Below are positions 15,649 to 49,099 of a DNA stretch of 64,000 nucleotides, piece after piece. Below the pieces are notes generated by a model. It was not told the origin of the DNA, did not search any database, and saw only the letters and a program-made list of their open reading frames with translations. Every line of letters starts with the position of its first letter. The first letter of the stretch is position 1. The position numbers and the translations under genes were made by a program. The DNA lies in IMG/VR virus record IMGVR_UViG_3300042350_003685, positions 4,317 to 68,316 of that record, one strand, 5' to 3'. This DNA is from a virus.

Positions 15649-16530
15649 TTAGTCCTCTAGTTCAATAATTTTGGGTTGATGACCGTTGGCACGAGCTTCG
15701 TAGCCAATGTAACCGCGTGGATTACACACCACACGAGTTGATCCAATTGTGTAGTCAAAATCATCGTGCATGTGACCATGTGTCCATAACTGAATTTCTG
15801 GATAGTCTAACATCACGTTGCTAAGATCGCTGGCATAGCAACCATTCATCTGGTAATCATGTTGGTACTTGTCATGAATACTGAGCATGCTGGGCGCATG
15901 ATGTCCTACAACGATCACACGGTTGTTGTTGATATCCTGCGCTCGACGTTGATCCAGTGTGTTCTTCAACCATTTCACTGTGCTGTCATGTTCGCTGAGT
16001 GCATCCGTGGGCAGGAATTTCCAGTTACCTGTGCGGCGTCCTTTCACACTATGCTTAACTGCTTGAAAGTCACGCATCATGTGCTCGGCTGATTGCAGAG
16101 TTAATGGATCTCTACGATTAAAATCAGTCCACAAAGTGCCACCAAGGAAAGTATATCCGTGGAGTTCTACCTGGCTTTGATTTAAAAAATGCACGTTGCG
16201 CAGGTTAAGTCTGTGCAACATGTCTGTAATGATTTCGTGACTGCGACTGTAGTCGCCATGATAGTGTTCATGATTACCCATGACATACACCACATCACGA
16301 TACCATAAACTGGCTTCTTGAAAAAATTCTTGATACATTATGCCACGCTTGGCACGTTCAAATCCTGAATGTGCGTCTGCGTCCCAGCCCCCGGGTATTT
16401 TGCCAACAGCACGAATGTCTTCTGCCACACAGATATCACCGCTGAGAATCAGCACATCCGCACCATGTGGGTTGTCTATGGCGTAGTCACCAAACTCTAG
16501 ATGTACATCGCTAGTTAACGCAATTTTCAT
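15649..16530 (-). CDS. Calcineurin-like metallophosphoesterase
   Basis: SDVH, GD, GNHE, HH and GHMH motifs. Confidence 0.9.
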   Translation of the reverse strand: MKIALTSDVHLEFGDYAIDNPHGADVLILSGDICVAEDIRAVGKIPGGWDADAHSGFERAKRGIMYQEFFQEASLWYRDVVYVMGNHEHYHGDYSRSHEIITDMLHRLNLRNVHFLNQSQVELHGYTFLGGTLWTDFNRRDPLTLQSAEHMMRDFQAVKHSVKGRRTGNWKFLPTDALSEHDSTVKWLKNTLDQRRAQDINNNRVIVVGHHAPSMLSIHDKYQHDYQMNGCYASDLSNVMLDYPEIQLWTHGHMHDDFDYTIGSTRVVCNPRGYIGYEARANGHQPKIIELED

Positions 16531-16747
16531 TTATATCCATTGGAATGTAAGCGGGCCAGCCAGTTAAAAATAACAATCTATCTTGCTCGTGTGTAAAATT
16601 AAAATCCATGAAGTCTACATTGGGTGATGTGGTGTATCTATCACCGGGCAGGCCAAATACTTCAACAACACGTGACAACATGTTGGACCAATTTGGCCAA
16701 CCAGCCAAAGTGGGATGATCATAGTTTATTCTAGCTCGATAGATCAT
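16511..16747 (-). CDS. Small hypothetical protein, possible distant member of the 'F..E.D...F.L.W' family
   Basis: C-terminal FNFTHEQDRLLFLTGW; overlapping start/stop with neighbours. Confidence 0.55.
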   Translation of the reverse strand: MIYRARINYDHPTLAGWPNWSNMLSRVVEVFGLPGDRYTTSPNVDFMDFNFTHEQDRLLFLTGWPAYIPMDINENCVN

Positions 16748-17192: not shown

Positions 17193-17221
17193 ATTATAGC
17201 ATATCCAAAATTTGTGGTCAA
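17193..17221 (-). promoter_or_regulatory. Sigma70-type early promoter
   Basis: TTGACC-N17-TATAAT; the TGA stop of the upstream gene lies inside the -35 box. Confidence 0.85.
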
Positions 17222-25803: not shown

Positions 25804-26081
25804 TCTTGAATTCCAAAATGGTCTTTGATATTATCAATACAATCGTCGGCACCTACTAGGTCAACTTGATCGCATAAGAACAAACATTGCTTTACAGTTT
25901 CCTTGATGCCATCCGATTGTCCGGCGATATAACCTGAACTGAAATGCTGGGCTTCGATGTCTTTCTCTAGCAGCTGAGCGAACCGTTCAAGACTGTTCCT
26001 GTAGATATGACCATTGTATGCTGAACTGTCTGGTAACTCAATACCAGCCTGTTCGGCAAGTTGTTTAATTCGTTCGTTCAT
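25800..26081 (-). CDS. 'MNERIKQLAEQA' family phage protein
   Basis: N-terminal motif and ...FA.L...C...C...IK.HFG; adjacent paralogue. Confidence 0.7.
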   Translation of the reverse strand: MNERIKQLAEQAGIELPDSSAYNGHIYRNSLERFAQLLEKDIEAQHFSSGYIAGQSDGIKETVKQCLFLCDQVDLVGADDCIDNIKDHFGIQE

Positions 26082-26314
26082 TCCTCAAACTCCAGATCAA
26101 ACTCAGTAAACACAACTTCCTGCGCAAAGGCCAGGGCACCTTCCCAACCAGCGTCAAATAAATCTCGTTCAGGAGTCTTTTGATATTCTTTATCAATCAC
26201 ATCCACACAACGGCGTATAATTAGTTCGGCAAATCGATATCTATCCAGAACCGGCACGCCTAGGATGTCATCTGTGGCCTGACTAGCAAGTTCGTCTACT
26301 AGCAATTTGTTCAT
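26078..26314 (-). CDS. 'MNERI' family paralogue
   Basis: ELASQA...RFAELIIRRC. Confidence 0.65.
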   Translation of the reverse strand: MNKLLVDELASQATDDILGVPVLDRYRFAELIIRRCVDVIDKEYQKTPERDLFDAGWEGALAFAQEVVFTEFDLEFEE

Positions 26315-26316
26315 GG

Positions 26317-26565
26317 TTATCCTGTGAGTTTGGCCACGATAGCAGTGGCCTCAAGTTGATGTGTTTGGCTGCGCAGCATGTCAAGTTCAGTCTCAAACTG
26401 TTCTGCGGGCAAGCTCATTAATAGTCGCTGCACTGTACTAACCATCCAGCCTGCTTCGTAAGCATAGCCACTGTTACTCTGTCTGCAGGCTCGGCTGAAT
26501 TCACGCAGCACCTGGCCTGCTTCTTCCCACTGATCAAGTTTATTATCTACTGGCATTTTCTTCAT
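26317..26565 (-). CDS. Hypothetical early protein
   Basis: ORF in the early gene run. Confidence 0.6.
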   Translation of the reverse strand: MKKMPVDNKLDQWEEAGQVLREFSRACRQSNSGYAYEAGWMVSTVQRLLMSLPAEQFETELDMLRSQTHQLEATAIVAKLTG

Positions 26566-26743
26566 TTACCTTTACACATTGAAAGTTCCATAAGCCATGA
26601 TTGTCAATTCGTTGCACTCTAAGACGTTCTAGTTCACAGTCTGCGGCAGTGAGATGATAGGCCCGAATGTCGCCATTGGGAAGATTCATGGCCTGACCAG
26701 ATGCTGTGACCCAGGCTACTAGCACATAAACGATTCCGTTCAT
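26543..26743 (-). CDS. Small exported two-Cys protein
   Basis: Hydrophobic N-terminus; T..DC....QC. Confidence 0.5.
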   Translation of the reverse strand: MNGIVYVLVAWVTASGQAMNLPNGDIRAYHLTAADCELERLRVQRIDNHGLWNFQCVKVNEENASR

Positions 26744-26916
26744 TATTCCATACCTGGCAGTTGTGATACTGCTTGATCAAACATAGCATGATTAAGTTGT
26801 TGTTCTAGCACATTGGCTCTAGGATTGTAGTCTTCTGCGAGAATAAAAGCCAGACGTTCAATACTGGAGTTACTAAGCAGTGCGATTTCGTTGGCTAGAA
26901 TTTCCAAGCGATCCAT
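26743..26916 (-). CDS. Small hypothetical protein (57 aa)
   Basis: MDRLEILANEIALLSNSS...; TAATG coupling on both sides. Confidence 0.55.
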   Translation of the reverse strand: MDRLEILANEIALLSNSSIERLAFILAEDYNPRANVLEQQLNHAMFDQAVSQLPGME

Positions 26917-27080
26917 TAGTTATACCCCACTTCGTAGTTTTCGGGTTCCAGCATGTCAGCTTCAAGCACCGCGTCATGATAGTTAGTGGCGCCTAGCAAA
27001 ATACTCTGTCCTTGATAAAAGTTGGCCATGTATGAGCCCGACACCGGATCGTACTCTACACTGATAAGAAAGTTTTCCAT
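26916..27080 (-). CDS. Small hypothetical protein (54 aa)
   Basis: MENFLISVEYDPVSG...; GGAG RBS; TAATG coupling. Confidence 0.6.
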   Translation of the reverse strand: MENFLISVEYDPVSGSYMANFYQGQSILLGATNYHDAVLEADMLEPENYEVGYN

Positions 27081-27292
27081 TATGCTCTCCCGTAGTAATC
27101 TGCGTCCTGGTCAGCTGATTGTTCAGCATATTCTTTTGGCACTGCCATGTCTAGTACAGCCTGCACTTCTGCGGTACTGATCTGCAGGTTCATGGCAATG
27201 TAGTCAGCGGTTTCATCTGAGAATCCCCAAGGATCGCCAATCTGCTCTGCCATGCGCATGATGTCTATTGCTAGGTTTTTCATTTTGCCCAT
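27080..27292 (-). CDS. Small hypothetical protein (MGKMKNLAIDI...)
   Basis: True start probably the ATG at 27292, just after the upstream stop. Confidence 0.6.
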   Translation of the reverse strand: MGKMKNLAIDIMRMAEQIGDPWGFSDETADYIAMNLQISTAEVQAVLDMAVPKEYAEQSADQDADYYGRA

Positions 27293-27293
27293 A

Positions 27294-27548
27294 TCAATCC
27301 CACCTTTTCTTGTCACCAAATTGGTCATTGTGCTCATAACCTGCCAAATATTCTGCACGTTCTTCGGCAGTAAGGTCTTCGATTTTTTCGCCGTTGCCGG
27401 TACCTTGCGGCCACCAATGCGGACCACGCGGACGACCGTAATAACTGTCTGCCGAGCCACGATCCCACAAGCTACCATGACGGCCACGATCAAACTGCGG
27501 CCCTTTTAACAAACGCATCAGTTGCTCTTGACTAACACTTTCTTGCAT
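27294..27548 (-). CDS. Conserved early phage protein (RHG..WDRGSADSYYGR)
   Basis: AAGGAG RBS; own early promoter. Confidence 0.75.
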   Translation of the reverse strand: MQESVSQEQLMRLLKGPQFDRGRHGSLWDRGSADSYYGRPRGPHWWPQGTGNGEKIEDLTAEERAEYLAGYEHNDQFGDKKRWD

Positions 27549-27552
27549 TGTT

Positions 27553-27606
27553 TGCTCCTTGTTTTTACTGTACCAATATTATAGCAAATGGGTATTTTTT
27601 GGTCAA
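27553..27606 (-). promoter_or_regulatory. Early promoter + RBS cassette
   Basis: TTGACC-aaaaaatacccatttgc-TATAAT-attggtacagt...AAGGAG. Confidence 0.9.
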
Positions 27607-27767
27607 GCGTGATTGTAGCGGCCTGTGAATTTTGCAACAGCACTGTCGCTTTTACCTAAATGCCTACTACCCGGAATTTTATGCTTTGGTGCTTTGTTGG
27701 GTTTGCAGATTGTAACTTTAACATTATCGGTAGTTACAAATTGTGCAACAATCATTCGATTACGCAT
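27603..27767 (-). CDS. Small basic early protein (54 aa)
   Basis: MRNRMIVAQFVTTDNVKVTICKP...; AAGGAG RBS; stop lies inside the next -35 box. Confidence 0.7.
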   Translation of the reverse strand: MRNRMIVAQFVTTDNVKVTICKPNKAPKHKIPGSRHLGKSDSAVAKFTGRYNHA

Positions 27768-27774
27768 TTTGCTA

Positions 27775-27827
27775 CTCCTTGATAGTTACTGTACCAATAG
27801 TATAACAAATGGGTATTTTTTGGTCAA
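27775..27827 (-). promoter_or_regulatory. Early promoter + RBS cassette, near-identical to 27553-27606
   Basis: TTGACC-aaaaaatacccatttgt-TATACT-attggtacagt...AAGGAG. Confidence 0.9.
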
Positions 27828-28024
27828 CCGCGGACCAAGTCAAAGATACTGTTCTGTAGATCTGCTACTTCGTCCGCAGGTACGTAGAAGTCAGTCCTAG
27901 GATCCCAGTACTCTCCGGCTCTTGGATCATAGTACAGTACTCTGCCACTGGGATAATGAAATGGACCTTCCAAGCCCTGGCGTGGGCCATGCTCCTGGCC
28001 ATGTTTGAACACACGATAGCTCAT
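27824..28024 (-). CDS. Conserved phage protein (GLEGPF...GRVLYYDP..G.YWDP.TDFY)
   Basis: Motif; true start probably MSYRVFK at 28024. Confidence 0.7.
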   Translation of the reverse strand: MSYRVFKHGQEHGPRQGLEGPFHYPSGRVLYYDPRAGEYWDPRTDFYVPADEVADLQNSIFDLVRG

Positions 28025-28025
28025 G

Positions 28026-28196
28026 TTAGGCCTCGGTTGTGTTGATGTTGCAGGCAGCAAAGAATCGCTGCTCGTTGAATTTGGGGTTGGCTGCTTTGCA
28101 GGCCGATGCCACTGCCACAGCAGCATTCAAACGGCAGTGTGGATCAAGCATGGTTGAAATATAGTGGGCGAGCAGTTCAAAGTGTTTCTTAGACAT
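28026..28196 (-). CDS. Small early protein (MSKKHFELLA...NPKFNEQRFFAAC)
   Basis: AAGGAG RBS; promoter TTGACC-N17-TATAAT at 28228-28256. Confidence 0.75.
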   Translation of the reverse strand: MSKKHFELLAHYISTMLDPHCRLNAAVAVASACKAANPKFNEQRFFAACNINTTEA

Positions 28197-28245
28197 ACTG
28201 TGGCTCCTTGTTGTTTACTGTACTGCTATTATATAGAAACGGAAA

Positions 28246-28404
28246 TTATTGGTCAACCTGCACTAGGTAAGTGCTGACTAACCCACGATTTCTGTGCTTG
28301 GAATGCCGCTGATACTGTGTAGCATCACGGTGACGAACCGCGCGATTGTGATCGTTTTTAGCGACCAAATTGCGGGGTTTTGGTAGTGTGATTTTTGTTT
28401 TCAT
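28246..28404 (-). CDS. Small highly basic leaderless protein (KPRNLVAK...H.D..QY.RHSKH)
   Basis: Promoter TTGACC-N17-TATAAT at 28411-28439 ends 6 nt before the ATG. Confidence 0.65.
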   Translation of the reverse strand: MKTKITLPKPRNLVAKNDHNRAVRHRDATQYQRHSKHRNRGLVSTYLVQVDQ

Positions 28405-28435
28405 ACCGTAATTATACGGTCTGGGGATTATTTGG

Positions 28436-28828
28436 TCAACCTTGACCTGTGGAGCCAACAGGCACCCAGCCTATACGCAGCAGATCCTGCCGGACTTCAT
28501 CTGTGATTAGTCCTTCGCTGACAAAGTTATTATTATGGTCTTGTTCAGCCTCAGAATCACTCAACATCATGCCTCTGCGGATGCCCGAACAATACCAGTC
28601 TATGTAGTCACCTTCCTGACGAATATGAGCCACGATACCTCCAGCATACCGCCAGGTGCATCCCCAGGTTTGATCTTTTAGTATGGGCCAGACTTCATTG
28701 CGTTGGAACTCATTGTTGCACAGAGCCGCATAGAAGTTCTGAGCATAGGAAGTATTGCTGCGAATCTTGGCACAGATCCAGTCACAGCCTTCAACATCAT
28801 ACTCAAGATTAGGATATTCAGATTCCAT
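28436..28828 (-). CDS. Conserved phage hypothetical protein (YAQN.YAALCNN...WRYAGGIVA...GDYIDWYCSG)
   Basis: Motif; immediately downstream of the tRNA. Confidence 0.75.
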   Translation of the reverse strand: MESEYPNLEYDVEGCDWICAKIRSNTSYAQNFYAALCNNEFQRNEVWPILKDQTWGCTWRYAGGIVAHIRQEGDYIDWYCSGIRRGMMLSDSEAEQDHNNNFVSEGLITDEVRQDLLRIGWVPVGSTGQG

Positions 28829-28834
28829 GATGTT

Positions 28835-28911
28835 TGGTGGGCCGGGAGAGATTCGAACTCTCTATCCCCCGATTATGAGTCGGACGCATATACCTAATAT
28901 GCTTCCGGCCC
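28835..28911 (-). tRNA. tRNA with CAT anticodon, probably tRNA-Ile2 (lysidine type)
   Basis: Cloverleaf: GGGCCGG/CCGGCCC acceptor stem, A73, encoded CCA, TTCGAAT T-loop, CTCATAA anticodon loop. C4:G69 and C29:G41 favour Ile over Met. Confidence 0.9.
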
Positions 28912-29168
28912 TAACTCCATTTAAGAGCAAACAGTGTGGCAATGGTTGGATTTTTAAAATACACCGACCAGTTGCTGATTATGTAGTCTATTTTAACACT
29001 TTGTCCATGATCGTTCAACCAGTAATGGACATCATCCAAATTGTATGGTTCAATACTCATGCGCATGGGCACAACATGCACAAAGCCCTGCTCGGCCAAT
29101 CTCACTGGATAAGGCCTGCTTAATGGATTGCTGTGATCAAGTCGGCTAGATTTGGTCACTAGTTCCAC
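28911..29168 (-). CDS. 'L(R/K)WS' array member 6
   Basis: C-terminus YFKNPTIATLFALKWS; stop codon overlaps tRNA base 1; start uncertain. Confidence 0.65.
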   Translation of the reverse strand: MELVTKSSRLDHSNPLSRPYPVRLAEQGFVHVVPMRMSIEPYNLDDVHYWLNDHGQSVKIDYIISNWSVYFKNPTIATLFALKWS

Positions 29169-29473
29169 ATTATAGCAATATGACTCGCATAGATTGCGTA
29201 TTTTTTACGCATGCGAATTGTCAAACGATTTTCTGCTGCATCATTATTGGCCATGTACCACTGCCAGTCTGGTCCTTGGCGGCCTATCCATTGTTCCATG
29301 AACGGACGATAGTGATCATTTGGATCTGCACTGGGCACTTCAACACGTCTAGCACCAACATCATACCACCTTGGATCCGCGTATCCCACCGCTATAGGAC
29401 CCGAAGGCCATTTTACATTGACTTCGATCCAGGGAACAAAGAACCACCATATTTTTTCTAACTTACTTAACAT
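29159..29473 (-). CDS. 'L(R/K)WS' array member 5 (divergent end, IMWN)
   Basis: ATG lies within the conserved junction 29471-29484. Confidence 0.65.
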   Translation of the reverse strand: MLSKLEKIWWFFVPWIEVNVKWPSGPIAVGYADPRWYDVGARRVEVPSADPNDHYRPFMEQWIGRQGPDWQWYMANNDAAENRLTIRMRKKYAIYASHIAIMWN

Positions 29474-29769
29474 GACCACCTCAACAACCACCAAGTCATT
29501 TCTTGCCGATCACTGAATCCCCACCACTCTTCTTTGTCACTGGCGCTGTAACAGGACATACCACTGGCACAATTCCGTCTACACCATGCCCAAAACTTGG
29601 TTTTGGTTTCATTAGCGATAGATACTCTAATTGGAGATACTGACACAAACCACTGACAGCGAATTCCTGAGCTGTGCTCATAGGCCCATAGACCACTGCC
29701 GGGGTCTCCCAGCCCGGGCTTTACTGCGTTCCAATGTTTGATAAATTGTTCGCGATCTAATACTGTCAC
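29467..29769 (-). CDS. 'L(R/K)WS' array member 4
   Basis: AWC...WWGFSDRQEMTWWLLRWSC. Confidence 0.7.
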   Translation of the reverse strand: MTVLDREQFIKHWNAVKPGLGDPGSGLWAYEHSSGIRCQWFVSVSPIRVSIANETKTKFWAWCRRNCASGMSCYSASDKEEWWGFSDRQEMTWWLLRWSC

Positions 29770-30035
29770 GACCACCTCAATGCAAACTCCATGGCATCAA
29801 GCGAATGCCTAAAGTGCCATTTCACTGCAAACTGCCAGTTGTCAAGATCCAACTCATTGGTATCAAATTCTTCATGCCATGCTGCATCGTTTCTATTTTG
29901 AGGCTGCAATCGGCCTATGCCGTAACGATTGGCTAGATACTCCCAGGCTTCAACATATGAACCATAGTCGCGAAAACGACTTATCACAAGGTAAGGATAT
30001 TGACGTCTAAGTCGTCTACGTTGTCTGGCGTTCAC
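29766..30035 (-). CDS. 'L(R/K)WS' array member 3
   Basis: WHFRHSLDAMEFALRWS; GTGA overlap. Confidence 0.7.
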   Translation of the reverse strand: MNARQRRRLRRQYPYLVISRFRDYGSYVEAWEYLANRYGIGRLQPQNRNDAAWHEEFDTNELDLDNWQFAVKWHFRHSLDAMEFALRWS

Positions 30036-30214
30036 GACCACCTCAACAAGTATAACAGATAATCTGATTGATTACGAAAACAAACATAGCCACGATTACG
30101 CCACCATGGCCGTCCCGGAGCGTAGCCAGTGTCTTCGCTTGTGTGGCCAAAAGTTTTCTTGCACCACTCAATTCTGGCGTATGCTTCTGGCATCTTGGCT
30201 CGATAATAGGTCAT
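30032..30214 (-). CDS. 'L(R/K)WS' array member 2
   Basis: EWC...FG...CFRNQSDYLLYLLRWS; ATGA overlap. Confidence 0.7.
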   Translation of the reverse strand: MTYYRAKMPEAYARIEWCKKTFGHTSEDTGYAPGRPWWRNRGYVCFRNQSDYLLYLLRWS

Positions 30215-30429
30215 GACCACTTCAACAAAAACACAGCGATTTCTTTTTCATTACGAAAACGAAACTGATCAAATGAAGTTCGAACACCACAATTATTTTC
30301 TCTACACCAGGCGGCCACAGGCTCTAGGTGTTCATCGCGTAGTCCAGTGGGGGTCACAGCGCCATGATCATAGGCCATTCTAGCACACAGATAGAACGGA
30401 CGCGAGTGTCTTTCCCAAACTAATTTCAC
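30211..30429 (-). CDS. 'L(R/K)WS' array member 1
   Basis: AWC...FRFRNEKEIAVFLLKWS. Confidence 0.7.
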   Translation of the reverse strand: MKLVWERHSRPFYLCARMAYDHGAVTPTGLRDEHLEPVAAWCRENNCGVRTSFDQFRFRNEKEIAVFLLKWS

Positions 30430-30830
30430 AAATTCACTGCTTCCTTATGCACTGCAAATCTATACAGTGCATTACATTCCCAAAGGAATTGTTGACCAAC
30501 ATCCATGCTGACATAATCTACGCCTTGCATGCCCTGCTCGGTATATGAAACATCAAGTATGGCGTCGGGACTGAGACCAAAATGATTCTCCATACAGGTA
30601 AGGAATGAGTGTTTCCAGCCCATGTCCGAATATATCAATCCATCGTTGTCAACGTCCCATTCCTTAGGCTCAAAGTAAGCTCTAAGCTCACCATACTCAC
30701 CGTTGTCGCTGACATAAGCCAGGGCCACACGATGAATTTTTACGGTCTTGATCTGGTTAGACCAGTAGCCGTCGCCGCTGGTCCGGGTGATAAAATTTAC
30801 CAAACAATCAAATTTCATTGTATAATCCAA
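30426..30830 (-). CDS. Conserved phage hypothetical protein (GDGYWS...GELR.YF....W....GLIY.D...YTEQGMQG.DYVS.DV)
   Basis: Motif; start probably the ATG at about 30818. Confidence 0.7.
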   Translation of the reverse strand: MDYTMKFDCLVNFITRTSGDGYWSNQIKTVKIHRVALAYVSDNGEYGELRAYFEPKEWDVDNDGLIYSDMGWKHSFLTCMENHFGLSPDAILDVSYTEQGMQGVDYVSMDVGQQFLWECNALYRFAVHKEAVNL

Positions 30831-30883
30831 ACAATAATTGCCAAGGTTATCATGAACCAGAACACTATAGTATCTCCACTATA

Positions 30884-31042
30884 TCATGTATGGTCAGCTA
30901 CTTCGCATTCAATGATCCAGTTGCGGAACTCGGTGAATTTGTCAACTTCTACACCTAGGCTTACCGCTTGATTTACAAAGTGTTGAAGCAGTGTGTTATA
31001 CAGCTCGTCCGGCATGGTGTCTTTGTCAAATTGAATTTTCAT
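30884..31042 (-). CDS. Small hypothetical protein
   Basis: MKIQFDKDTMPDELYN...; GGAGG RBS; ATGA coupling. Confidence 0.6.
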   Translation of the reverse strand: MKIQFDKDTMPDELYNTLLQHFVNQAVSLGVEVDKFTEFRNWIIECEVADHT

Positions 31043-31191
31043 GTGGTTGCCTCCAACTCTTGAATTTGCTTCCAAAGTTTACTACGCTGCTCGTCAATTT
31101 TGGAATTGGTCTCTTCGTCGAAACATCCTGCCTGCTCATCAAGATGAACCAGTTCGTTGTACAGCACATCTAGTATATATTGGTCAGCCAT
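31039..31191 (-). CDS. Small hypothetical protein (50 aa)
   Basis: MADQYILDVLYNEL...; AGGAG RBS. Confidence 0.6.
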   Translation of the reverse strand: MADQYILDVLYNELVHLDEQAGCFDEETNSKIDEQRSKLWKQIQELEATT

Positions 31192-31199
31192 GCTATCTC

Positions 31200-31388
31200 C
31201 TAGGTGCCTGTCATTTCTTTGTGGCGTTTGAGAAACTCTTTACGGTGCTCTTCGCGGATCTTAACAGGATCCAAAGGCTCTGGAATACCAAAGATCTCTT
31301 CACGGCAGCGACGTGGGCTGATCACACCAACGATTATGACTATGATACCCATGAGCACCATCTTGAGTCGGTCGGTTATGAATTTCAT
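31200..31388 (-). CDS. Small membrane-anchored protein
   Basis: One TM segment. Confidence 0.55.
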   Translation of the reverse strand: MKFITDRLKMVLMGIIVIIVGVISPRRCREEIFGIPEPLDPVKIREEHRKEFLKRHKEMTGT

Positions 31389-31390
31389 GA

Positions 31391-31663
31391 TTATTTCTGA
31401 TCCATGATATAAGTGAACAGCACAAACTTGGCACGGTTAAGCTGTTGGCGAGCATCTTCGGCTCGCATGAAGTCAACTTCACCGTACTCGGTGTTAACCA
31501 TTTCTTGTGCATCGGACATCATGCTGGCAACAACCATAGCGGGGCCAGAGAGCTTGAACGTGATGCTGGATTCGACTGCTTCGCGCATCTGCGCTTCGGT
31601 GCAGCCGTACATTGAAACTTCGCGGATTTCTTGGGTAGTAAGACCTTGGAATGCTGTTCTCAT
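31391..31663 (-). CDS. Early hypothetical protein
   Basis: AAGGAG RBS; promoter TTGACC-N17-TATAAT at 31694-31722. Confidence 0.75.
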   Translation of the reverse strand: MRTAFQGLTTQEIREVSMYGCTEAQMREAVESSITFKLSGPAMVVASMMSDAQEMVNTEYGEVDFMRAEDARQQLNRAKFVLFTYIMDQK

Positions 31664-31726
31664 TTGCTGCTCCTTGTTGTTTAGTGTTCTTGTATTATAG
31701 GCAAATTAGGAATTTTGGTCAAATCT

Positions 31727-32056
31727 TTATTTTTTCTTGTTTTTTTGCTTTTTGTTAACTGTTGCAACTTCTTTAACTTTTGTTGCATTTTTCATAATAT
31801 GGAACAAATCTGTTGCTTTTTTAAAATTGAAATTAGGGTGCCGGTACATGTAGTCTATTTTGCGTTCTAAAACTTGCAAAACTTCTAACAAGTCCATTTT
31901 TGTTGCGAAATCGCTAGCCATTAGTATGTTGTTAATATCATGCTTGTCTAGCATGTATTCTACCCATTTTGTTGTGGCAGGTATCTTGTAATATTGTACA
32001 ATTGCTTTTTTGTTATTGGTTACATTGTACTTGGCGATATAACTGTGTGCAAACAT
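31727..32056 (-). CDS. AT-rich basic early hypothetical protein
   Basis: GGAG RBS; promoter TTGACT-N17-TATAAT at 32083-32111. Confidence 0.7.
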   Translation of the reverse strand: MFAHSYIAKYNVTNNKKAIVQYYKIPATTKWVEYMLDKHDINNILMASDFATKMDLLEVLQVLERKIDYMYRHPNFNFKKATDLFHIMKNATKVKEVATVNKKQKNKKK

Positions 32057-32139
32057 ATACGCTCCGGTTTATGTAATCACACATTATACGAAAACGGTGA
32101 TTTATAGTCAACCGTTTTCGTTTTTGTGACAACCATGCA

Positions 32140-33315
32140 CTATAGCAACACAGTGTGCCGCCAATAATCGCTGGCCGCTGCTACCCCGCTGCCTGGTTCC
32201 ACATTGATGCCACAGTCCTGCATGGCCATTTCTGCACCCGAGATCGCTGCCATGAGATGTATTTCATTCATGTCACCCAGGTGCCCAATGCGGAATAGCT
32301 TGCCAGCGACCTTGCTCAACCCTGCTCCCAGTGACAGATTGTACCTGGTATAGGCTCTGCGGATCACATCTGCCCCGTTGATGCCTTCGGGTACCATGAT
32401 TGCAGACACAGTGTTGGAGTACCACTCTGGAGATCGAGCGCAGAGCTCTAGACCCCATCCCTTTTGAACAGCAGCCCGAACACCTTCGGCAAGGAAAGCA
32501 TGGCGACGAATAATGTTATCCAGGCCTTCTTCGTCTATCATCTTTAGCGACTCAATCAAGCCATACAACAAACTCAGTGCTGGTGTGTAAGGATAATATC
32601 CGGTGCTGTTGCTGTTAAGCATATCGTTTAGATCAAAATATGCTCGCTTGAGTTTGGCAGTATGGCGTAGTTCCAATGCCTTTGGGCTAGCACACAGGAT
32701 GCCTAGACCAGCTGGCAGCATAAGACCTTTTTGTGATCCTGATACTGCCATGTCCACACCCCATTGATCGAATCTTAGGTCAATTGACGCCAGACTACTC
32801 ACACAGTCCACAAACAGTAGAGCAGGGTGGTTGGTGCTAGCCAATGCGTTTCTAACCGCAGCCACATCTGATGTAACACCAGTGGCAGTTTCATTATGGC
32901 ATACTAGCACTGCCTTATAGGCGTGTGTGGTGTCGGCCGCTAGTCGTTGTTGATATGTGTCAACAGGAACACCAGTACCCCATTCACAATCTACTACATC
33001 TACTTCTAGCCCAAGTCGGACGCACATGTCAATCCAGAGATGACTGAATTGACCAAATCTAGCGGCCAGCACTCGATCACCCGGGCTTAGTGTGTTTGTT
33101 ATGGCTGCTTCCCAACAGCCGGTGCCTGAACTGGGAAACACAAATGGTGTGCCTAATTCAGTCTTGAACACTCGTTTGAGTCCGGTAGTGATTTGATGAG
33201 TAATACTAGGGAAGTCGGGCGATCTATGGTCCTCCATTGATACAACCATAGCCCGTTGTACGCGATCAGGAACGTTGGTAGGTCCAGGTACAAATAAAAA
33301 GTTACGTCCAGCCAT
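32140..33315 (-). CDS. sgaA: Serine-glyoxylate aminotransferase (class V PLP enzyme)
   Basis: GRNFLFVPGPTNVPDRV.RAM...EDHRS.DFP, SGTG.WE, RFGQFSHLW, HNETATGVTSD and SGSQKGLMLPAGLG (PLP lysine); resembles methylotroph SgaA. Confidence 0.85.
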   Translation of the reverse strand: MAGRNFLFVPGPTNVPDRVQRAMVVSMEDHRSPDFPSITHQITTGLKRVFKTELGTPFVFPSSGTGCWEAAITNTLSPGDRVLAARFGQFSHLWIDMCVRLGLEVDVVDCEWGTGVPVDTYQQRLAADTTHAYKAVLVCHNETATGVTSDVAAVRNALASTNHPALLFVDCVSSLASIDLRFDQWGVDMAVSGSQKGLMLPAGLGILCASPKALELRHTAKLKRAYFDLNDMLNSNSTGYYPYTPALSLLYGLIESLKMIDEEGLDNIIRRHAFLAEGVRAAVQKGWGLELCARSPEWYSNTVSAIMVPEGINGADVIRRAYTRYNLSLGAGLSKVAGKLFRIGHLGDMNEIHLMAAISGAEMAMQDCGINVEPGSGVAAASDYWRHTVLL

Positions 33316-33422
33316 GTTTTTTCCTTTCAAAAAAAGGCCAGTACATGGCTGGTTTGTTTTTATAGGTCGTCCTATACCATGTTAGGTTAGGCAATTATAC
33401 ACAGAGTCTTGACGTAAGTCAA
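33308..33422 (-). promoter_or_regulatory. sgaA promoter and structured 5' leader
   Basis: TTGACT-N17-TATAAT at 33394-33422; 10-bp inverted repeat 33308-33317/33343-33352 covering the ATG; TATAGG/CCTATA hairpin at 33361-33376. Confidence 0.7.
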
Positions 33423-33438
33423 GGTCTAGGGTTGCCTT

Positions 33439-34149
33439 TTACCATGCATCAGGCCAAGCTGCCACTCTGTTCAAACTGGTAAAATTAGTTACCATTTTTT
33501 TAGCAGCTTCGCTGAAGCCACGCTTGTGATAGTATATTTGCGCCAGTTCTGTGATCGCTTCTAGATCGGATCTTTCACCAACACTGGCTATCGTGGCCAC
33601 AGTCAAGGGTCTGCCACGCAGAGAAGCAAAACCAAAGTCCCAAAAGTTTTGAATGATTTCTCGTCTGTTGGTTATTTTCTTACCAGACTTCACACTGTAT
33701 ACACCTTGGTGTTTGGCAAGAGCAAAACATCTCTTCCAAGTCAACAGTTGAGTCACAGCGCCCTGACTGCTGCGTTCAGAATATGGCCTCAAACGACTGA
33801 TGCCCTTGTGATCGCCCCACTCTTCAAATTCTTCTCGCCACTCATCAGAATATAGATTTTTAGCAATTGATACCACGTCAGTGGTAGCAGCACCCAAAAA
33901 CTGTATCTTGTGGTCGGTAAAAACCACATAGCTTTGTTGAAATTTTTCGCCTAATTTCAGTAGATTGTCAAGGTTCTCCGAACTTTCGCGGTTTGCCTGT
34001 TGACCAAGAGTAAACACAGTGAGCTGATCTGCTTCACGATTGTTTTGCCTACTCCATCCATATCGATCACGTTTGCCCACTGCCAATCTATAATTGGCTT
34101 GATTCACTGCATAGATGGTTTGATATTGCAACATAAAGACTCCCGACAA
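33439..34149 (-). CDS. Hypothetical protein
   Basis: 236-aa ORF behind TTGACA-N17-TATACT at 34163-34191. Confidence 0.7.
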   Translation of the reverse strand: MSGVFMLQYQTIYAVNQANYRLAVGKRDRYGWSRQNNREADQLTVFTLGQQANRESSENLDNLLKLGEKFQQSYVVFTDHKIQFLGAATTDVVSIAKNLYSDEWREEFEEWGDHKGISRLRPYSERSSQGAVTQLLTWKRCFALAKHQGVYSVKSGKKITNRREIIQNFWDFGFASLRGRPLTVATIASVGERSDLEAITELAQIYYHKRGFSEAAKKMVTNFTSLNRVAAWPDAW

Positions 34150-39593: not shown

Positions 39594-39872
39594 TTAACTC
39601 CATTTCATTGTGAAACCCAATCTGTCGGTGTCGCTGTCAAAATAAAAAATATAACGACCCGGATGAGTTTGAGTAGCACTTTCTACCATTTGCCAACGCC
39701 AGTCGTCTTTGGTTTGTTCTCTGCACCAAGACAACGCCATGTCTAATCGACCAAAAGGCAGCTGGACTTCTATTGCATAATTGAATCCACGACCTCGACG
39801 AGTGTGATCATTGAATCCCCAATGCCATGGATCATCAGTTGGCCAAAGACTATGTTTCCAGGTATGTGTCAC
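39594..39872 (-). CDS. Solitary 'L(R/K)WS' family paralogue
   Basis: SWC......WRW...YIFYFDSDTDRLGFTMKWS. Confidence 0.65.
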   Translation of the reverse strand: MTHTWKHSLWPTDDPWHWGFNDHTRRGRGFNYAIEVQLPFGRLDMALSWCREQTKDDWRWQMVESATQTHPGRYIFYFDSDTDRLGFTMKWS

Positions 39873-43926: not shown

Positions 43927-44004
43927 TTGAGCTCCTTGCAATTCAATATACCCAAATTATAGGCACTTTTCCAATAATGGTCAACCGGAGTCTATAAGTA
44001 CCTC

Positions 44005-45189: not shown

Positions 45190-46338
45190 ATTTTCCAAAT
45201 AGTTCTCGTGATTTTTCTGGGTACTGAGAATGGTCTCAGCCTCTGGCCAATTTCTTCGTATCAACTGGCGACTGATATCACTGTTCAACATCTGACCTAT
45301 TAGGTTATGCCAAGGCATGCTCAAAAACTGTTTGAGTATTTCAAGATCACGCATGGGTGTAAATGTTAGAGTATTGCCAAGATGCCAGTGCTGATGATCG
45401 TTGGCAGCGCGATCCAATAGATGCAGTTCCAGCAGTTGAGGGTCTTGAATTAACTTTTTGACTTCTAGATCTTGCCTTTGGTTGATGAATAGTTCACGAT
45501 TTTTCTGCGAGTTGAAATAGTTATAGTGAAGATCATCAGGTTCAATCACTTCATGTAACATACGTCCATCGTGGCACATGTTTAGCATATTGGCCATACC
45601 AGGGTTACGCAGTGTGAATTCATCACCAGGACATCCACTGACCAACACAGTTGGCTCACGCCAGTGGTGTATTTGTTTGTATGCCCAGTTCTGTTCTGTG
45701 AGCCTATGATGATTACGCAACCAAAACCGATCAAACTCAAGATGTTCTGCTAGTACCACTTCATGTTCGATGCCCAGCTTTTGTAGATAACTCCACATCA
45801 AGGTAGTGTCAATACCGCCACTGAGAAAAATACGTACTGGTAAAGTGTTGTGTTGGAAAAAGGTCTTGAACTTGTTGATCAATATATCGTCTAAGACATC
45901 TAGTACTATACTAATCAAAGCGGTATGTTGTGGCAGCTCACCAATAATATCGTGTTTGACTTCAGTGAGGTCAAGATCCGGATTAATATGCACTGAGCTA
46001 TCAGCCCACACACTGTGTGTCAGTGGCACTAGATTGGTCAAGCCTTGTTTATCATCATACCAAAGAGGAAAACTTCTACATTCATTGTGTATTACTCTTA
46101 TGCCTGACTCTTGTATATCAAGCACACAAAAGTTTCCTTTAACAGATGCCCAAGGTGCTGCCGCTATTTCTCTTACTCGATCAGGTAAGAGACCTTCATC
46201 AGTATAACCTTTGAACATTAAAACACGATCCCAGGTGCGATCAACTTGCCATCCTTCATCAGTGTCCACGCACCAATGAAAGTATCGTATCTGTTGGCTC
46301 ATCATGGGCTTGGTATCTTTGCTAATCCAAAAGAACAT
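45169..46338 (-). CDS. Asparagine-synthase-like ATP pyrophosphatase-domain protein
   Basis: FLSGGIDT PP-loop and SG..GDE. Confidence 0.6.
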   Translation of the reverse strand: MFFWISKDTKPMMSQQIRYFHWCVDTDEGWQVDRTWDRVLMFKGYTDEGLLPDRVREIAAAPWASVKGNFCVLDIQESGIRVIHNECRSFPLWYDDKQGLTNLVPLTHSVWADSSVHINPDLDLTEVKHDIIGELPQHTALISIVLDVLDDILINKFKTFFQHNTLPVRIFLSGGIDTTLMWSYLQKLGIEHEVVLAEHLEFDRFWLRNHHRLTEQNWAYKQIHHWREPTVLVSGCPGDEFTLRNPGMANMLNMCHDGRMLHEVIEPDDLHYNYFNSQKNRELFINQRQDLEVKKLIQDPQLLELHLLDRAANDHQHWHLGNTLTFTPMRDLEILKQFLSMPWHNLIGQMLNSDISRQLIRRNWPEAETILSTQKNHENYLENLEQLVS

Positions 46339-46928
46339 TATGCGTCTCGCTTGGTAATCACTTTGTCAGCCAATCCATAGCTTACTGCCTGTTCGGCTGT
46401 CATGAAATTATCTCGTTCCATGTCTGCTTTGAGTACCTCATAGGTGTTTGGAGTGTGCTTTTCATACACACGAGTTAGTACATCTTTCCAACGCAATAGT
46501 TCTCGCGCCTGAATTTCCACATCAGTGGCTTGACCACTGGCTCCGCCCAGGGGCTGATGGATCATGTGTCTTGCATTGGGCAAAATATAGCGATGTCCTT
46601 TTTCACCTGCCATGGCCAACAGTGATCCCATGCTGGCTGCTTGGCCCATTACAATGGTATGAACAGGAGATTGAATAAACTGCATGGTATCATAGATGCT
46701 CATGCCCGCTGTAACACTACCACCGGGTGAATTGATGTAAAAATGTATGGCTTTTTTGGGATCTTCGCTTTCCAAAAACAGCATCTGTGCTACCACAAGA
46801 CTGGCTGAATGCTGTGTGACTTCTCCATCCAGCATGATAATACGGTCTCGTAATAAGCGGCTGTAGATGTCGTAACTGCGTTCTCCCTTGGAGGTTTGTT
46901 CTAACACGATGGGCACTAGATTGGGCAT
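46338..46928 (-). CDS. clpP: ATP-dependent Clp protease proteolytic subunit
   Basis: [29 protein letters not shown] (Ser), MIHQP (His) and ERDNFM (Asp). Confidence 0.95.
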
Positions 46929-46976: not shown

Positions 46977-48527
46977 ATGATACGCAATCTTCTTGACAAA
47001 TTTGACATTTTAACCGAAAGCACCGGTATAGCTAACCGGAAACCCGGTGACGTTTTTGCCGACGGCGAAGGCAACGAAATTAGGTTCCAAAGTGTGCAAT
47101 TCTACCCCGAAGGTGGCGGCAAATATTCTAGCTCTGAAGAAACACAACAGGCCATCAATCAGGTCACTCAACAAATTGGTGCCAAGCCCATTGAAACCAA
47201 TTGGTTTCGTAAACAAACAAGATCCTTTGGTGTTGCACAGTTCCAAGACGACAACGGACGCCCGCTGTTTTTTATTAGATATTTTGACAAAGAACTTTCA
47301 CCTGATCCACGTGGTAACTATTGGGATAATCAAACCGGTCTAGGTAGTTATCGCTACAAAGGCAAAGCCGCAGTAAAAACTCAAAGCAATGCCACTCCGC
47401 AGGACATATTGTCTCAGCCTGATAATCTCTCTGCCGCAGACATCGTTCAACAGATCGAACAGAGATTTCCAGGCAGCTCATTGGTCACAGTGGCTCAACA
47501 CTTGGCTTCAGGTGGTGAACTACCGTTTTCGTTTTTGCGCCCAGCTGAAATGGATATTTCAGCGTTTCAAGACTACTTTTGTGAACTACTACAGCCTATT
47601 GCTCTACAGACAGGGCAATTTGAAGGAGAAGCTGCTGCGGCCGGTGCTGTGTTCTTGGGCGAAGGCGGATTCGCAGACACAGTGATCAGTTTCAGTAACA
47701 GCAAGACCGAAGGACTCAGCGACAGCATAATGACCTCACCAGATGGAAGATCTATCAAGGTCAGCAGCAAAGGTGGAACAGGTGCAGCAGCATCAGCGGT
47801 TAATATTCTCAATGCCTATGACGAACTTCAACGCACAGCCGCAGGACGTAAACTAACCAAAAAACTCAGCAACACTTTGGAAATACTAAACACCATCAAG
47901 AACACCGGACAAGCAGAAGCACCTTTGGTGTTGGGTCAGCAGTTTGGAATTATATCAGATCAAGACGCTGACTTTATCAAGGTATTGAAAGGCTTTAGAC
48001 CAGTGCCCTTGGAGTCTCTAAAAGATATCAGCGTACAAGGAAAAGGGCCTTCCAAGAACCTTGTGAAACTGGCCAAGGAACGCAATACCAAAGAACCAGA
48101 TAGAGTAAATCTATTTTTCCATTTGATAGCCAGTGTGGCATTTAAAGTAGCAGATCATATCAACAACAAAACTGACTTTGGCAAAGATGCTGCTGTGATC
48201 CTAAACAACAGTGCCTTGATACAGGTATACACCAAGGTATCCGCTCGAGGCCAACAATGGACTCTGCAAAAGTTTTCAAGCAAATGGCCAGGATCATTGA
48301 TCAGTGGCATTGCATTGGATCCAGCCAAAGGATATTACAGCACGGGAATCAAACAGAAATTTACCTTTACTGTGAATCCCACCAAAAAGACTCTTGATGA
48401 CCCACAGAGCGCACGTGCCGACATAGATGAACCAGATATCAAACCCAAACGCAGTTCAGTCAAGGCCTACAAACCCGAACAGCCAGTGGGCACAGAAAAA
48501 ACTCTAGGAAGAAAACGTAGAAGCTAG
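46977..48527 (+). CDS. Late-expressed protein with a PD-(D/E)xK-like motif, possibly virion-packaged
   Basis: FCELL.P...GLSDS.......IKVSSKGG; N-terminal ILTE; ATAAGTA upstream. Confidence 0.5.
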   Translation: MIRNLLDKFDILTESTGIANRKPGDVFADGEGNEIRFQSVQFYPEGGGKYSSSEETQQAINQVTQQIGAKPIETNWFRKQTRSFGVAQFQDDNGRPLFFIRYFDKELSPDPRGNYWDNQTGLGSYRYKGKAAVKTQSNATPQDILSQPDNLSAADIVQQIEQRFPGSSLVTVAQHLASGGELPFSFLRPAEMDISAFQDYFCELLQPIALQTGQFEGEAAAAGAVFLGEGGFADTVISFSNSKTEGLSDSIMTSPDGRSIKVSSKGGTGAAASAVNILNAYDELQRTAAGRKLTKKLSNTLEILNTIKNTGQAEAPLVLGQQFGIISDQDADFIKVLKGFRPVPLESLKDISVQGKGPSKNLVKLAKERNTKEPDRVNLFFHLIASVAFKVADHINNKTDFGKDAAVILNNSALIQVYTKVSARGQQWTLQKFSSKWPGSLISGIALDPAKGYYSTGIKQKFTFTVNPTKKTLDDPQSARADIDEPDIKPKRSSVKAYKPEQPVGTEKTLGRKRRS

Positions 48528-49099
48528 CCTAGATCCGCTACATGGTCGCAGATATGATACTGCAAGGCTTCTTGAGCAGAGAGATATACATCCTGTGGTG
48601 GTAACAACACTTTTCTAATCGTGGTATCATCAAGTCCAGTGGCCTTGCGATAGTGTTCTACCATGCGTTGTTCGGTAAGTTCAAATTCTTTCACAGTGGC
48701 AAATAGTTCGTGTGCTTTACCCTGACTGCCCCAACTGAACTGATGGCTGAGTATACTGGTGTTTGGTGTTAGCATGCGTCTGCCTTTGGTGCCAGCAAGA
48801 AAGATCATTAGTCCACAACTGGCTACACTACCAAGTCCCACTGTTTTGATTGGGATACGGCTACTGACCATTACATCAATCAAAGCAAATGCGTTTTCAA
48901 GATCGCCCCCGCTGCTGCATATCATGAGCAAAAGTTCTTTGTGTTTTTTCTTACGCACAAGATTTTCATGTAGAATCCATTCAATCACAGGTTTCACGGA
49001 CTCTGGGGTTATTTCATCCATGAGCACATAGATACCAGAATTGGTTAGATCCTCACTGGGACTGGAATAGTCATTTGCGTTTTTGTCTTGTGTGGTCAT
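48524..49099 (-). CDS. Divergent ClpP-like protease
   Basis: ICSSGG, VASCG (Ser), LSHQ (His) and D.YLSA.EAL. Confidence 0.85.
   Translation of the reverse strand: MTTQDKNANDYSSPSEDLTNSGIYVLMDEITPESVKPVIEWILHENLVRKKKHKELLLMICSSGGDLENAFALIDVMVSSRIPIKTVGLGSVASCGLMIFLAGTKGRRMLTPNTSILSHQFSWGSQGKAHELFATVKEFELTEQRMVEHYRKATGLDDTTIRKVLLPPQDVYLSAQEALQYHICDHVADLG

Follow-up and report, generated by a model that had tools for sequence, protein, structure and literature searches.

Six small head-to-tail open reading frames (ORFs) on the minus strand of the virus record IMGVR_UViG_3300042350_003685 probably form a row that is transcribed together and translationally coupled, made up of paralogues of ancient divergence from one undescribed small-protein family, in the early region of a large freshwater phage. 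The window, by which we mean the whole 64,000-nt stretch analysed, comprises bases 4317-68316 of this 68,316-bp record, and the row occupies positions 28911-30429 with a tRNA-Met gene at its end. An initial annotation of the window had described six consecutive ORFs and four junctions, whose coordinates give spacings of 296, 266 and 179 nt, together with three RTGA overlaps, and all of these were found as claimed. Its ORFs of 60-105 amino acids (aa) were given corrected starts, as the mechanical ORF list had chosen an upstream GTG within AGGTGG and the likely start is the junction RTG. With the junction RTG taken as start, the proteins, named m1 to m6 along the minus strand, have 72, 60, 89, 100, 104 and approximately 82-85 aa; the N-termini of orthologues (MT.., MN..) are in line with such starts. 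For m6 the start is GTG 29168 or, more likely, GTG 29159, which overlaps the m5 stop. The array and its immediate surroundings are as follows (SD, Shine-Dalgarno sequence).

30426..30830, minus strand: conserved flanking gene, 134 aa; its stop overlaps the GTG start of m1 (GTGA), and it is kept in the related loci L001 and L002
30211..30429, minus strand: unit m1, 72 aa, C-terminus FLLKWS; the most widespread subfamily, with the motif W-C..N.CG.R.SFD.F.F
30212..30225, minus strand: junction m1/m2, TTGAAGTGGTCATG; L-K-W-S, SD-like AAGTGG and an ATG overlapping TGA
30032..30214, minus strand: unit m2, 60 aa from the junction ATG, C-terminus YLLRWS
30033..30046, minus strand: junction m2/m3, TTGAGGTGGTCGTG
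29766..30035, minus strand: unit m3, 89 aa from the junction GTG, C-terminus FALRWS
29767..29780, minus strand: junction m3/m4, TTGAGGTGGTCGTG
29467..29769, minus strand: unit m4, 100 aa from the junction GTG, C-terminus WLLRWSC
29471..29484, minus strand: junction m4/m5, TTGAGGTGGTCATG; the m4 stop TAA lies two codons past the ATG
29159..29473, minus strand: gene m5, 104 aa, C-terminus IAIMWN; coupled at both ends, with family homology undetectable
28911..29168 or 28911..29159, minus strand: terminal unit m6, 82-85 aa, C-terminus FALKWS
28835..28911, minus strand: tRNA-Met, anticodon CAT, adjoining the m6 stop

DNA contigs from two other lake-water runs covered the array without a difference and bridged all four junctions, and thus it is not an assembly artefact.

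The sequence TTGARGTGGTCRTG is present exactly four times in the window, on the minus strand only, against a chance expectation of 0.12, and none of 100 shuffles gave four copies. At these junctions the upstream gene ends in TTG-AGG/AAG-TGG-TCR and the next ATG or GTG overlaps its stop; three are RTGA overlaps (TCATGA, TCGTGA and TCGTGA), and the fourth is an ATG with TAA two codons later. From the 134-aa gene through m6, the six boundaries read GTGA, ATGA, GTGA, GTGA, ATG..TAA and TAGTG. In translational coupling, stop and start codons overlap (ATGA or GTGA) and the SD lies inside the upstream gene. The array shows both a start at or over the upstream stop and an SD within the upstream gene, and would on this basis qualify as a translationally coupled operon. 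The SD-like GAGGTGGTC is built from the Arg/Lys-Trp-Ser codons and stands directly before the start codon; presumably it can pair over nine bases with the textbook 3' end of 16S rRNA, its GAGG core being about five bases before the start. The junction itself calls for no special explanation, the L-[R/K]-W-x motif, the SD GAGGTGGTC and the RTGA overlap falling on the same bases.

Codon usage separates the protein motif from its role in initiation. The tail codons of m6 are CTT AAA TGG AGT TAG and those of a solitary copy at 39594-39872 are ATG AAA TGG AGT TAA, and neither tail provides an SD or a start. Orthologues of m6 with the tRNA or nothing downstream (window, L001, L002, L004) end in AGT TAG or GCA TAA, and those with a gene downstream (L003, L005) in TCA TGA or ACA TGA. 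The codon background was taken from the window alone, where 38 long ORFs contain 768 Arg codons and 6.2% of these are AGG; in the array, AGG encodes the motif Arg in three of three cases (p 2.4e-4). A larger comparison used the 255 hits of a family hidden Markov model (HMM) in the window and fetched loci, reduced to 202 distinct members by merging identical 120-nt contexts and omitting L007 and L014 (duplicate contigs) and members less than 60 nt from a locus end. An [RK][WYF] end was found in 182 of the 202, in 146 with an overlapping or abutting start and in 36 without; the downstream start lay most often at the -4 offset (97 of 202). Under a simple rule that called a member coupled when ATG or GTG stood at fixed offsets with the frame open for at least 35 codons, the motif Arg was AGG in 78 of 99 coupled members and in 4 of 15 uncoupled ones (Fisher p 1.2e-4). 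The last codon of coupled members was mostly TCA, GCA or GGA (NNA before TGA), and AGT was commonest in the uncoupled. Since codon choice follows the presence of a downstream gene, these sequences show a motif held at the protein level, the codons of which are tuned for coupling if a gene follows. The initial annotation had proposed that each unit supplies the translation signal of the next, and had suggested a check of synonymous codons at array against terminal or solitary positions; the proposal stands on both counts, with SD and start lying within the last four codons and codon choice tracking the downstream gene.

The kinship of the units became apparent at the level of orthologue profiles. 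Direct all-against-all phmmer comparison of eight candidates gave near-noise scores only, and an HMM from the six array proteins alone recovered just its own sequences. A profile search with the six array proteins returned 70 hits at E<=0.01 from 201 candidates, which by best-matching member divide into 34 for m6, 13 for m1, 10 for m4, 8 for m5, 3 for m3 and 2 for m2. As every hit clearly goes with one member, each unit has its own orthologue group, with 50-94% identity within groups and less than 30% between units of the array. Comparison of the window with L001 gave dN/dS values of 0.095 (m1), 0.101 (m2), 0.153 (m3) and 0.081 (m6), and 0.160 for the downstream flanking gene, values by which m1, m2, m3 and m6 are judged to evolve under purifying selection. 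When orthologue profiles were aligned with hhalign, m6 matched m1 (probability 62%, E 7e-5, 56 columns) and m1 matched m4 (probability 69%, E 4e-5, 47 columns), and the family HMM matches m1, m2, m3, m4 and m6 as well as further units in related loci. The two solitary paralogues that had been suggested, the second only as a possibility, both found support as members of the family.

39594..39872, minus strand: solitary member, 92 aa, C-terminus FTMKWS; a downstream gene starts 10 nt on; E 5e-6 with the HMM iterated over fetched loci
16511..16747, minus strand: distant solitary member, 78 aa, of a highly conserved separate subfamily (EVFGLPGDRY...EQDRLLFLTGWP) with a tail beyond the W; the profile of its 34 homologues matches the family at hhalign 93.8%, E 1.7e-7, over 58 columns

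We define the family as proteins of 55-140 aa that carry at their C-terminus a profile-detectable core, W (helix 1)...F.F (strand 3)...F.L[RK]W (helix 2). This core was found in m1, m2, m3, m4, m6 and the 39594 copy by HMM and in the 16511 copy by hhalign, and not in m5, which scored at most 0.5% against other members in hhalign and 0.3% against the enlarged family profile. The window thus holds seven members supported by sequence profiles, five array units and two solitary copies, and m5 lacks detectable kinship; the motif once described for all six ORFs is shared by five (m1-m4 and m6), m5 ending in IAIMWN.

An exhaustive profile search of 1.84 billion representatives gave 507 at E<=1e-3 and 20 at E<=1e-10. 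The family representatives are nearly all of 57-138 aa with the domain at the extreme C-terminus, and among the 147 representatives listed below 140 aa, 104 end one residue past [RK]W and 22 end two past. At a 35% identity threshold the 255 hits fall into 66 subfamilies, and as these occur in many orders, the paralogues are old and the arrays built from a shared pool. The paralogues are therefore anciently diverged, and the family is large, viral and previously undescribed. Two long proteins, P0081 (1143 aa) and P0115 (5037 aa), reached E values of about 1e-9 to 1e-11 through many short stretches of the helix-1 region (17 in P0081), probably a repeat or composition effect. Related tails below threshold, F.LKYL, FELRYR, FILKFL and FILKYM, were seen in L004 (4133-4360) and L005 (4894-5085, 5707-5982 and 5979-6191), and their presence suggests that the superfamily may be wider than the 507 clusters counted.

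The AF2 model of the m6 group (mean pLDDT 84.5) has a short helix followed by strand 31-34, helix 44-53, strands 62-65 and 68-71 and helix 74-84, a beta-alpha-beta-beta-alpha order that is confidently predicted as a generic ferredoxin/RRM-like arrangement. The family-wide conserved columns, W in helix 1, F.F in strand 3 and F.L.W in helix 2, are aromatic or hydrophobic, and would be core positions by reading of the element boundaries of the model rather than of its coordinates. The common small alpha/beta fold of the initial annotation is supported by this model and by the profile core shared by m1, m4, m6 and the 16511 copy, but this support does not extend to m5. The m5 model is poor (pLDDT 64), with strand 15-21, helix 56-63, strands 70-73 and 83-89 and helix 90-103 in the same element order as m6, which we regard as no more than a lead; its search of BFVD gave one sequence homologue and a few weak hits also on the m6 list (A0A6J5L7N8, A0A6J5NXQ2, A0A6J5KTI1 and A0A6J7WGD3), an overlap that we discounted as evidence of a shared fold.

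Database searches placed the family among small phage proteins of no assigned role. Foldseek with the m6 model found no match in the PDB and only weak matches in BFVD (probability up to 1.00, E 0.007-0.2), all to uncharacterised small phage proteins, among them A0A6J5TAR9 and A0A6J5KKV7 ('uncultured Caudovirales phage') and A0A2L0UZW8 (Agrobacterium phage Atu_ph07). Atu_ph07 also gave one weak profile match (E 1e-4) within a 215-aa hypothetical protein. Pfam-A gave nothing at cut-off for 8 window proteins and 42 family proteins, PHROGs v4 gave no match on the C-terminal domain, NCBIfam 20 assigned no family to 15 proteins, and the best match of the family profile to PDB sequences had an E of 0.19. 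In the ESM Atlas all hits were viral hypothetical-protein clusters, which had no Pfam family in common; one cluster with Gp23 (13% of members, score 0.84) was put down to chance or to a gene-calling artefact. In a set of 50,697 phage records, blastn of the region matched the tRNA only, and neither m1 nor the 16511 copy had a match by tblastn. A literature search by general terms, supplementary tables aside, did not recover a description of the family.

Comparison of related loci revealed that the content of the arrays is not fixed. Between the same flanks (the 134-aa gene on one side and m6, the tRNA and a 130-aa gene on the other), the order m1-m2-m3-m4-m5-m6 of the window is replaced in L001 by m1-m3-X-m2-m6, with m2 and m3 swapped and m4 and m5 absent, and in L002 by the seven units m1-a-b-m2-c-m3'-m6. 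In L003, m2 follows m6, and in L004 and L005, m6 stands among remoter units ending in LKYL, LRYR and LKFL. The fetched stretches carry from 2 to 14 units, the maximum being 14 within 5 kb (L034/L035); the largest cluster seen lies in the near-complete 320,767-bp jumbo-phage record behind L032, rated 92% complete, with 22 profile matches on one strand over approximately 21 kb (~192-213 kb). These loci show arrays that, judged from their gene orders, gain, lose and reorder single units between related phages, and the expandable, variable array of the initial annotation is thereby borne out. None of the findings that could have spoken against that annotation, namely members without a shared fold, an array of fixed content across relatives, or junction codons equally conserved in solitary copies, was obtained.

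The same annotation had suggested that the junction might also be a recombination site, and this part fared less well. The 14-25 nt shared by unit ends would serve as microhomology, and homologous or slipped-strand exchange, within one genome or between co-infecting phages, would delete, duplicate or swap whole units that keep their frame and can be expressed directly; such a cassette system would need no recombinase, and its effect would be like that of shuffling by promoter-early stem-loops (PeSLs). Units are indeed gained, lost and permuted between constant flanks in the window, L001 and L002, and the blocks of DNA similarity between window and L001 stop at junctions. Adjacent units can also have different nearest relatives: the left unit of L022 is 75% identical to L019 and 65% to L017, the right unit 66% to L019 and 82% to L017, and for 53 pairs, not independent of one another, from 11 loci sharing both adjacent subfamilies, the correlation between the identities of neighbours is only r 0.49, a weak hint, from short proteins, that neighbouring units may have decoupled histories. 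However, motif, SD and stop/start overlap already account for every junction base, viable rearrangements would break at gene ends under any mechanism, and the junction nucleotides are less uniform in relatives (CTGAGGTGGGCATGA and CTGAAGTGGACATGA in L001, for example). Contigs of two DNA runs showed no joint within the array at which a unit-sized piece had been deleted or inserted, although contigs drop rare variants, and the longer promoter cassettes repeated in the region could mediate exchange instead. A recombining junction is, in our estimation, rather unlikely. Outside the array, one X16 DNA contig joins 31078 to 31401, omitting 322 nt with small ORFs upstream of the array, and represents a population variant.

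Unlikelier by a further step is the stronger proposal of self-propagating cassettes, in which end-to-end recombination over 14-25 nt would yield an in-frame, expressed array drawn from a pool of at least 66 subfamilies of host-targeting (counter-defence) proteins with no dedicated recombinase. If true, such cassettes would stand to PeSL shuffling as its counterpart in translation, and to integron cassette arrays as their analogue in phages. Integron gene cassettes as such were rejected. Each integron cassette is followed by an attC, an imperfect inverted repeat of tens of bases, and a tyrosine-recombinase integrase lies nearby; there is no room for attC between overlapping genes, and no integrase was found among the 72 window ORFs, a part of those in the window, that were scanned against PHROGs.

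The surroundings of the array are those of a region rich in promoters. Eight exact TTGACY-N17-TATAAT sites occur on the minus strand of the window, where 0.03 would be expected.

17193-17221, minus strand: promoter-like site
27578-27606, minus strand: promoter-like site
28228-28256, minus strand: promoter-like site
28411-28439, minus strand: promoter-like site
31694-31722, minus strand: promoter-like site of sigma-70 type (TTGACC-17-TATAAT); of the strong sites upstream of the array, the closest to it
32083-32111, minus strand: promoter-like site
33394-33422, minus strand: promoter-like site
43956-43984, minus strand: promoter-like site

The array is situated between the promoter-like sites at 31722 and 28439, and the site at 31694..31722 probably heads its putative transcription unit. 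Several of these sites belong to a conserved cassette, some 75 nt long and made up of promoter, leader, AAGGAG and ATG, which is also repeated in L001 and L002 and in which no clear stem-loop was seen; of the promoter-like and terminator-like sites listed in 26000-34000, none is at a junction. By these features the array is placed in a promoter-rich, early-type (hyperplastic-type) region of what appears to be a large freshwater phage. For the closest relative, the record is rated 45% complete at 157 kb. The array ends in a tRNA in the window, L001 (6249-6325) and L002 (6239-6313), as first described, but not in L003-L006. On reading its sequence, the tRNA-Met(CAT) has a G-C pair between its first base and base 72, and its gene includes CCA; it is therefore not initiator-like and may serve as an elongator Met tRNA or be of Ile2 type. 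The record also encodes tail-fibre and baseplate-type genes, an endolysin, NAD synthetase, radical-SAM and sugar-modifying genes. Two ClpP-like or head-maturation-protease-like genes lie 1.6 kb apart at 46338-46928 and 48524-49099, both on the minus strand (phrog_94, E 4.5e-55 and 9.3e-17). They gave rise to the idea of a C-terminal degron or ClpXP tag, which was dropped, the tail being modelled as the end of a packed helix. Near-identical DNA was present in many lake-water runs, with at least half of the sampled words found in 18 of 24 listed rows, 7 of these flagged as possible sources. Contigs of RNA libraries matched well only at 30743-31049 and 31482-31700, upstream of the array; inside it they matched with a single 44-nt piece, which carried 6 differences, and the matches to the tRNA stem from other sequences.

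In the explanation we favour, each protein would be a non-enzymatic beta-alpha-beta-beta-alpha scaffold whose last helix ends in L-[R/K]-W plus one residue, with an N-terminal segment and loops that differ by subfamily. Three constraints would act on the bases of the 14-nt junction, namely the conserved C-terminal residues, the SD GAGGTGGTC and the RTGA stop/start overlap; because these overlap, a ribosome ending one unit could re-initiate on the next, and a unit placed behind another would be expressed at once. Arrays would then grow, shrink and reorder unit by unit between related phages. As regards function, the initial annotation had guessed at anti-defence or at RNA or protein binding. 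We found no enzyme-like signature, the family-wide conserved columns (W, F, L, W) being aromatic or hydrophobic, and each of several subfamilies has invariant segments of its own: DHSNPLSRPY in m6, YDHGAVTPTG in m1 and EVFGLPGDRY in the 16511 group. The N-terminal DHSNPLSRPY..RL.E.G of the m6 group, a candidate binding motif, is invariant in 24 sequences otherwise 55-80% identical and falls in the lower-confidence part of the model. Because the region is promoter-rich and of early type, the core is conserved and these segments are subfamily-specific, a common scaffold with different binding determinants is favoured. The proteins may accordingly be imagined as made early, each binding a host (or rival) target of its own, and as acting in takeover of the host or in counter-defence, an assignment we put forward only tentatively.

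Several observations weigh against this explanation. The profile probabilities between subfamilies are moderate (62-69%), and m6 and m4 compared directly reach only 6.5%. One confident model (m6) beside a poor one (m5) does not establish a common fold of all six proteins, and the rule by which members were called coupled is a simple one. Metatranscriptome contigs, from libraries of a kind that may contain DNA, cover well only parts upstream of the array. Isoelectric points are mixed among the 147 listed representatives (40% below pI 6, 35% above pI 8), with no common charge; an arms race within orthologues would not be expected to leave a dN/dS near 0.1; and no homology or structure match supporting a function emerged from the searches made.

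The alternatives to a coupled array of paralogues with separate targets are less probable still. That there is no true family, and that unrelated small genes converged on L-R-W-S since GAGGTGGTCRTGA is needed for the next start, would agree with the near-noise pairwise similarity outside the tail and with m5, which has a similar tail (M-W-N, TAGTG) without detectable homology. It is nevertheless very improbable, as [RK]-W is retained with other codons where no start follows (AAA TGG AGT in m6, its orthologues and the 39594 copy), the motif is kept by 36 uncoupled members, the profile alignments extend beyond the tail over 47-58 columns, the whole beta-alpha-beta-beta-alpha core, and the 16511 subfamily, whose W stands away from the stop, retains this core all the same. 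Equally remote is a hetero-oligomeric complex or virion-associated set of which the units would be subunits, their stoichiometry fixed by coupling; the putative tight coupling of six genes and the upstream gene would suit it, but unit content, number and order vary even among close relatives, and the array is set among promoters of early type, at a distance from the tail-fibre block. A role as small RRM-like factors that bind host or phage RNAs, with targets specific to each paralogue, is unlikely, though less so than these two, and is a weaker alternative than binding of host or competitor targets. The RRM is a four-stranded beta-alpha-beta-beta-alpha-beta sandwich with the aromatic RNP1 and RNP2 motifs on its central strands; the m6 model has three strands, a family-wide conserved motif of the RNP1/RNP2 type is absent, the pI values are mixed with 40% acidic, and the tRNA neighbour is restricted to the closest relatives.

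Regions in which large phages carry small early genes of unassigned role, by the hundred, have been the source of many counter-defence and host-takeover proteins. The present family is widespread and purely viral, counting no fewer than 507 clusters (50% identity), with as many as 22 matches in a single genome and an occurrence in many lake-water data sets. It now has a recognisable signature, one confident fold model and clear subfamilies with conserved specific segments, and as these are defined it becomes tractable for screens of binding partners and defence systems. The array also offers a natural case of a protein motif and a translation-initiation region on the same bases, with codons that switch if a gene follows, of relevance to gene calling, to analyses of codon usage and to the sustained expression of expanding tandem gene families.

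Among known systems, the predicted fold recalls ferredoxin-like sandwiches such as RRM, ACT and secretin N domains, from which it differs in having three strands and no fourth, with no sequence relation or shared motifs and with scores at chance level. The small phage proteins of BFVD are similar in size and predicted fold, but the E-values are weak and none is named or has a tested function. In Bacillus phage G, a zinc ribbon is reported to be present in about 35 copies, a lineage-specific expansion of a small domain to which no role is assigned (Iyer et al. 2021, PMC7824862). Our family resembles it as a small domain multiplied in a very large phage genome (22 matches in the 320-kb record), but has another fold and no metal-binding signature, and its paralogues are ancient, their orthologues recombined into different arrays across phages and chained by stop/start overlaps.

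The closest parallel in genome organisation is provided by the hyperplastic regions of T4-type phages, in which, according to two reports (Arbiol et al. 2010, PMC2839356; Comeau et al. 2014, PMC4122927), small non-essential genes are shuffled as modules by PeSL cassettes, intergenic promoter and terminator elements that act in transcription and for which recombination was shown experimentally. The region studied here shares with those regions its small genes of unassigned role and its many strong promoters of sigma-70-like type; with the PeSL regions it shares close relatives that differ by insertion, deletion or replacement of whole genes, a short regulatory sequence repeated at gene boundaries, and a repeated promoter-leader cassette of about 75 nt, though without a visible stem-loop. 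In contrast to a PeSL as described there, the junction is 14 nt of coding sequence with no intergenic DNA, acts in translation and flanks paralogues of one family, and so lacks the features that define a PeSL; any recombination at it is putative. With textbook translational coupling the proposed mechanism is the same. Here, however, the SD-start module is itself a conserved protein motif, and since the two coincide the module is copied with every duplication, while its codons switch by context, AGG and TCR with a following unit and AAA and AGT without.

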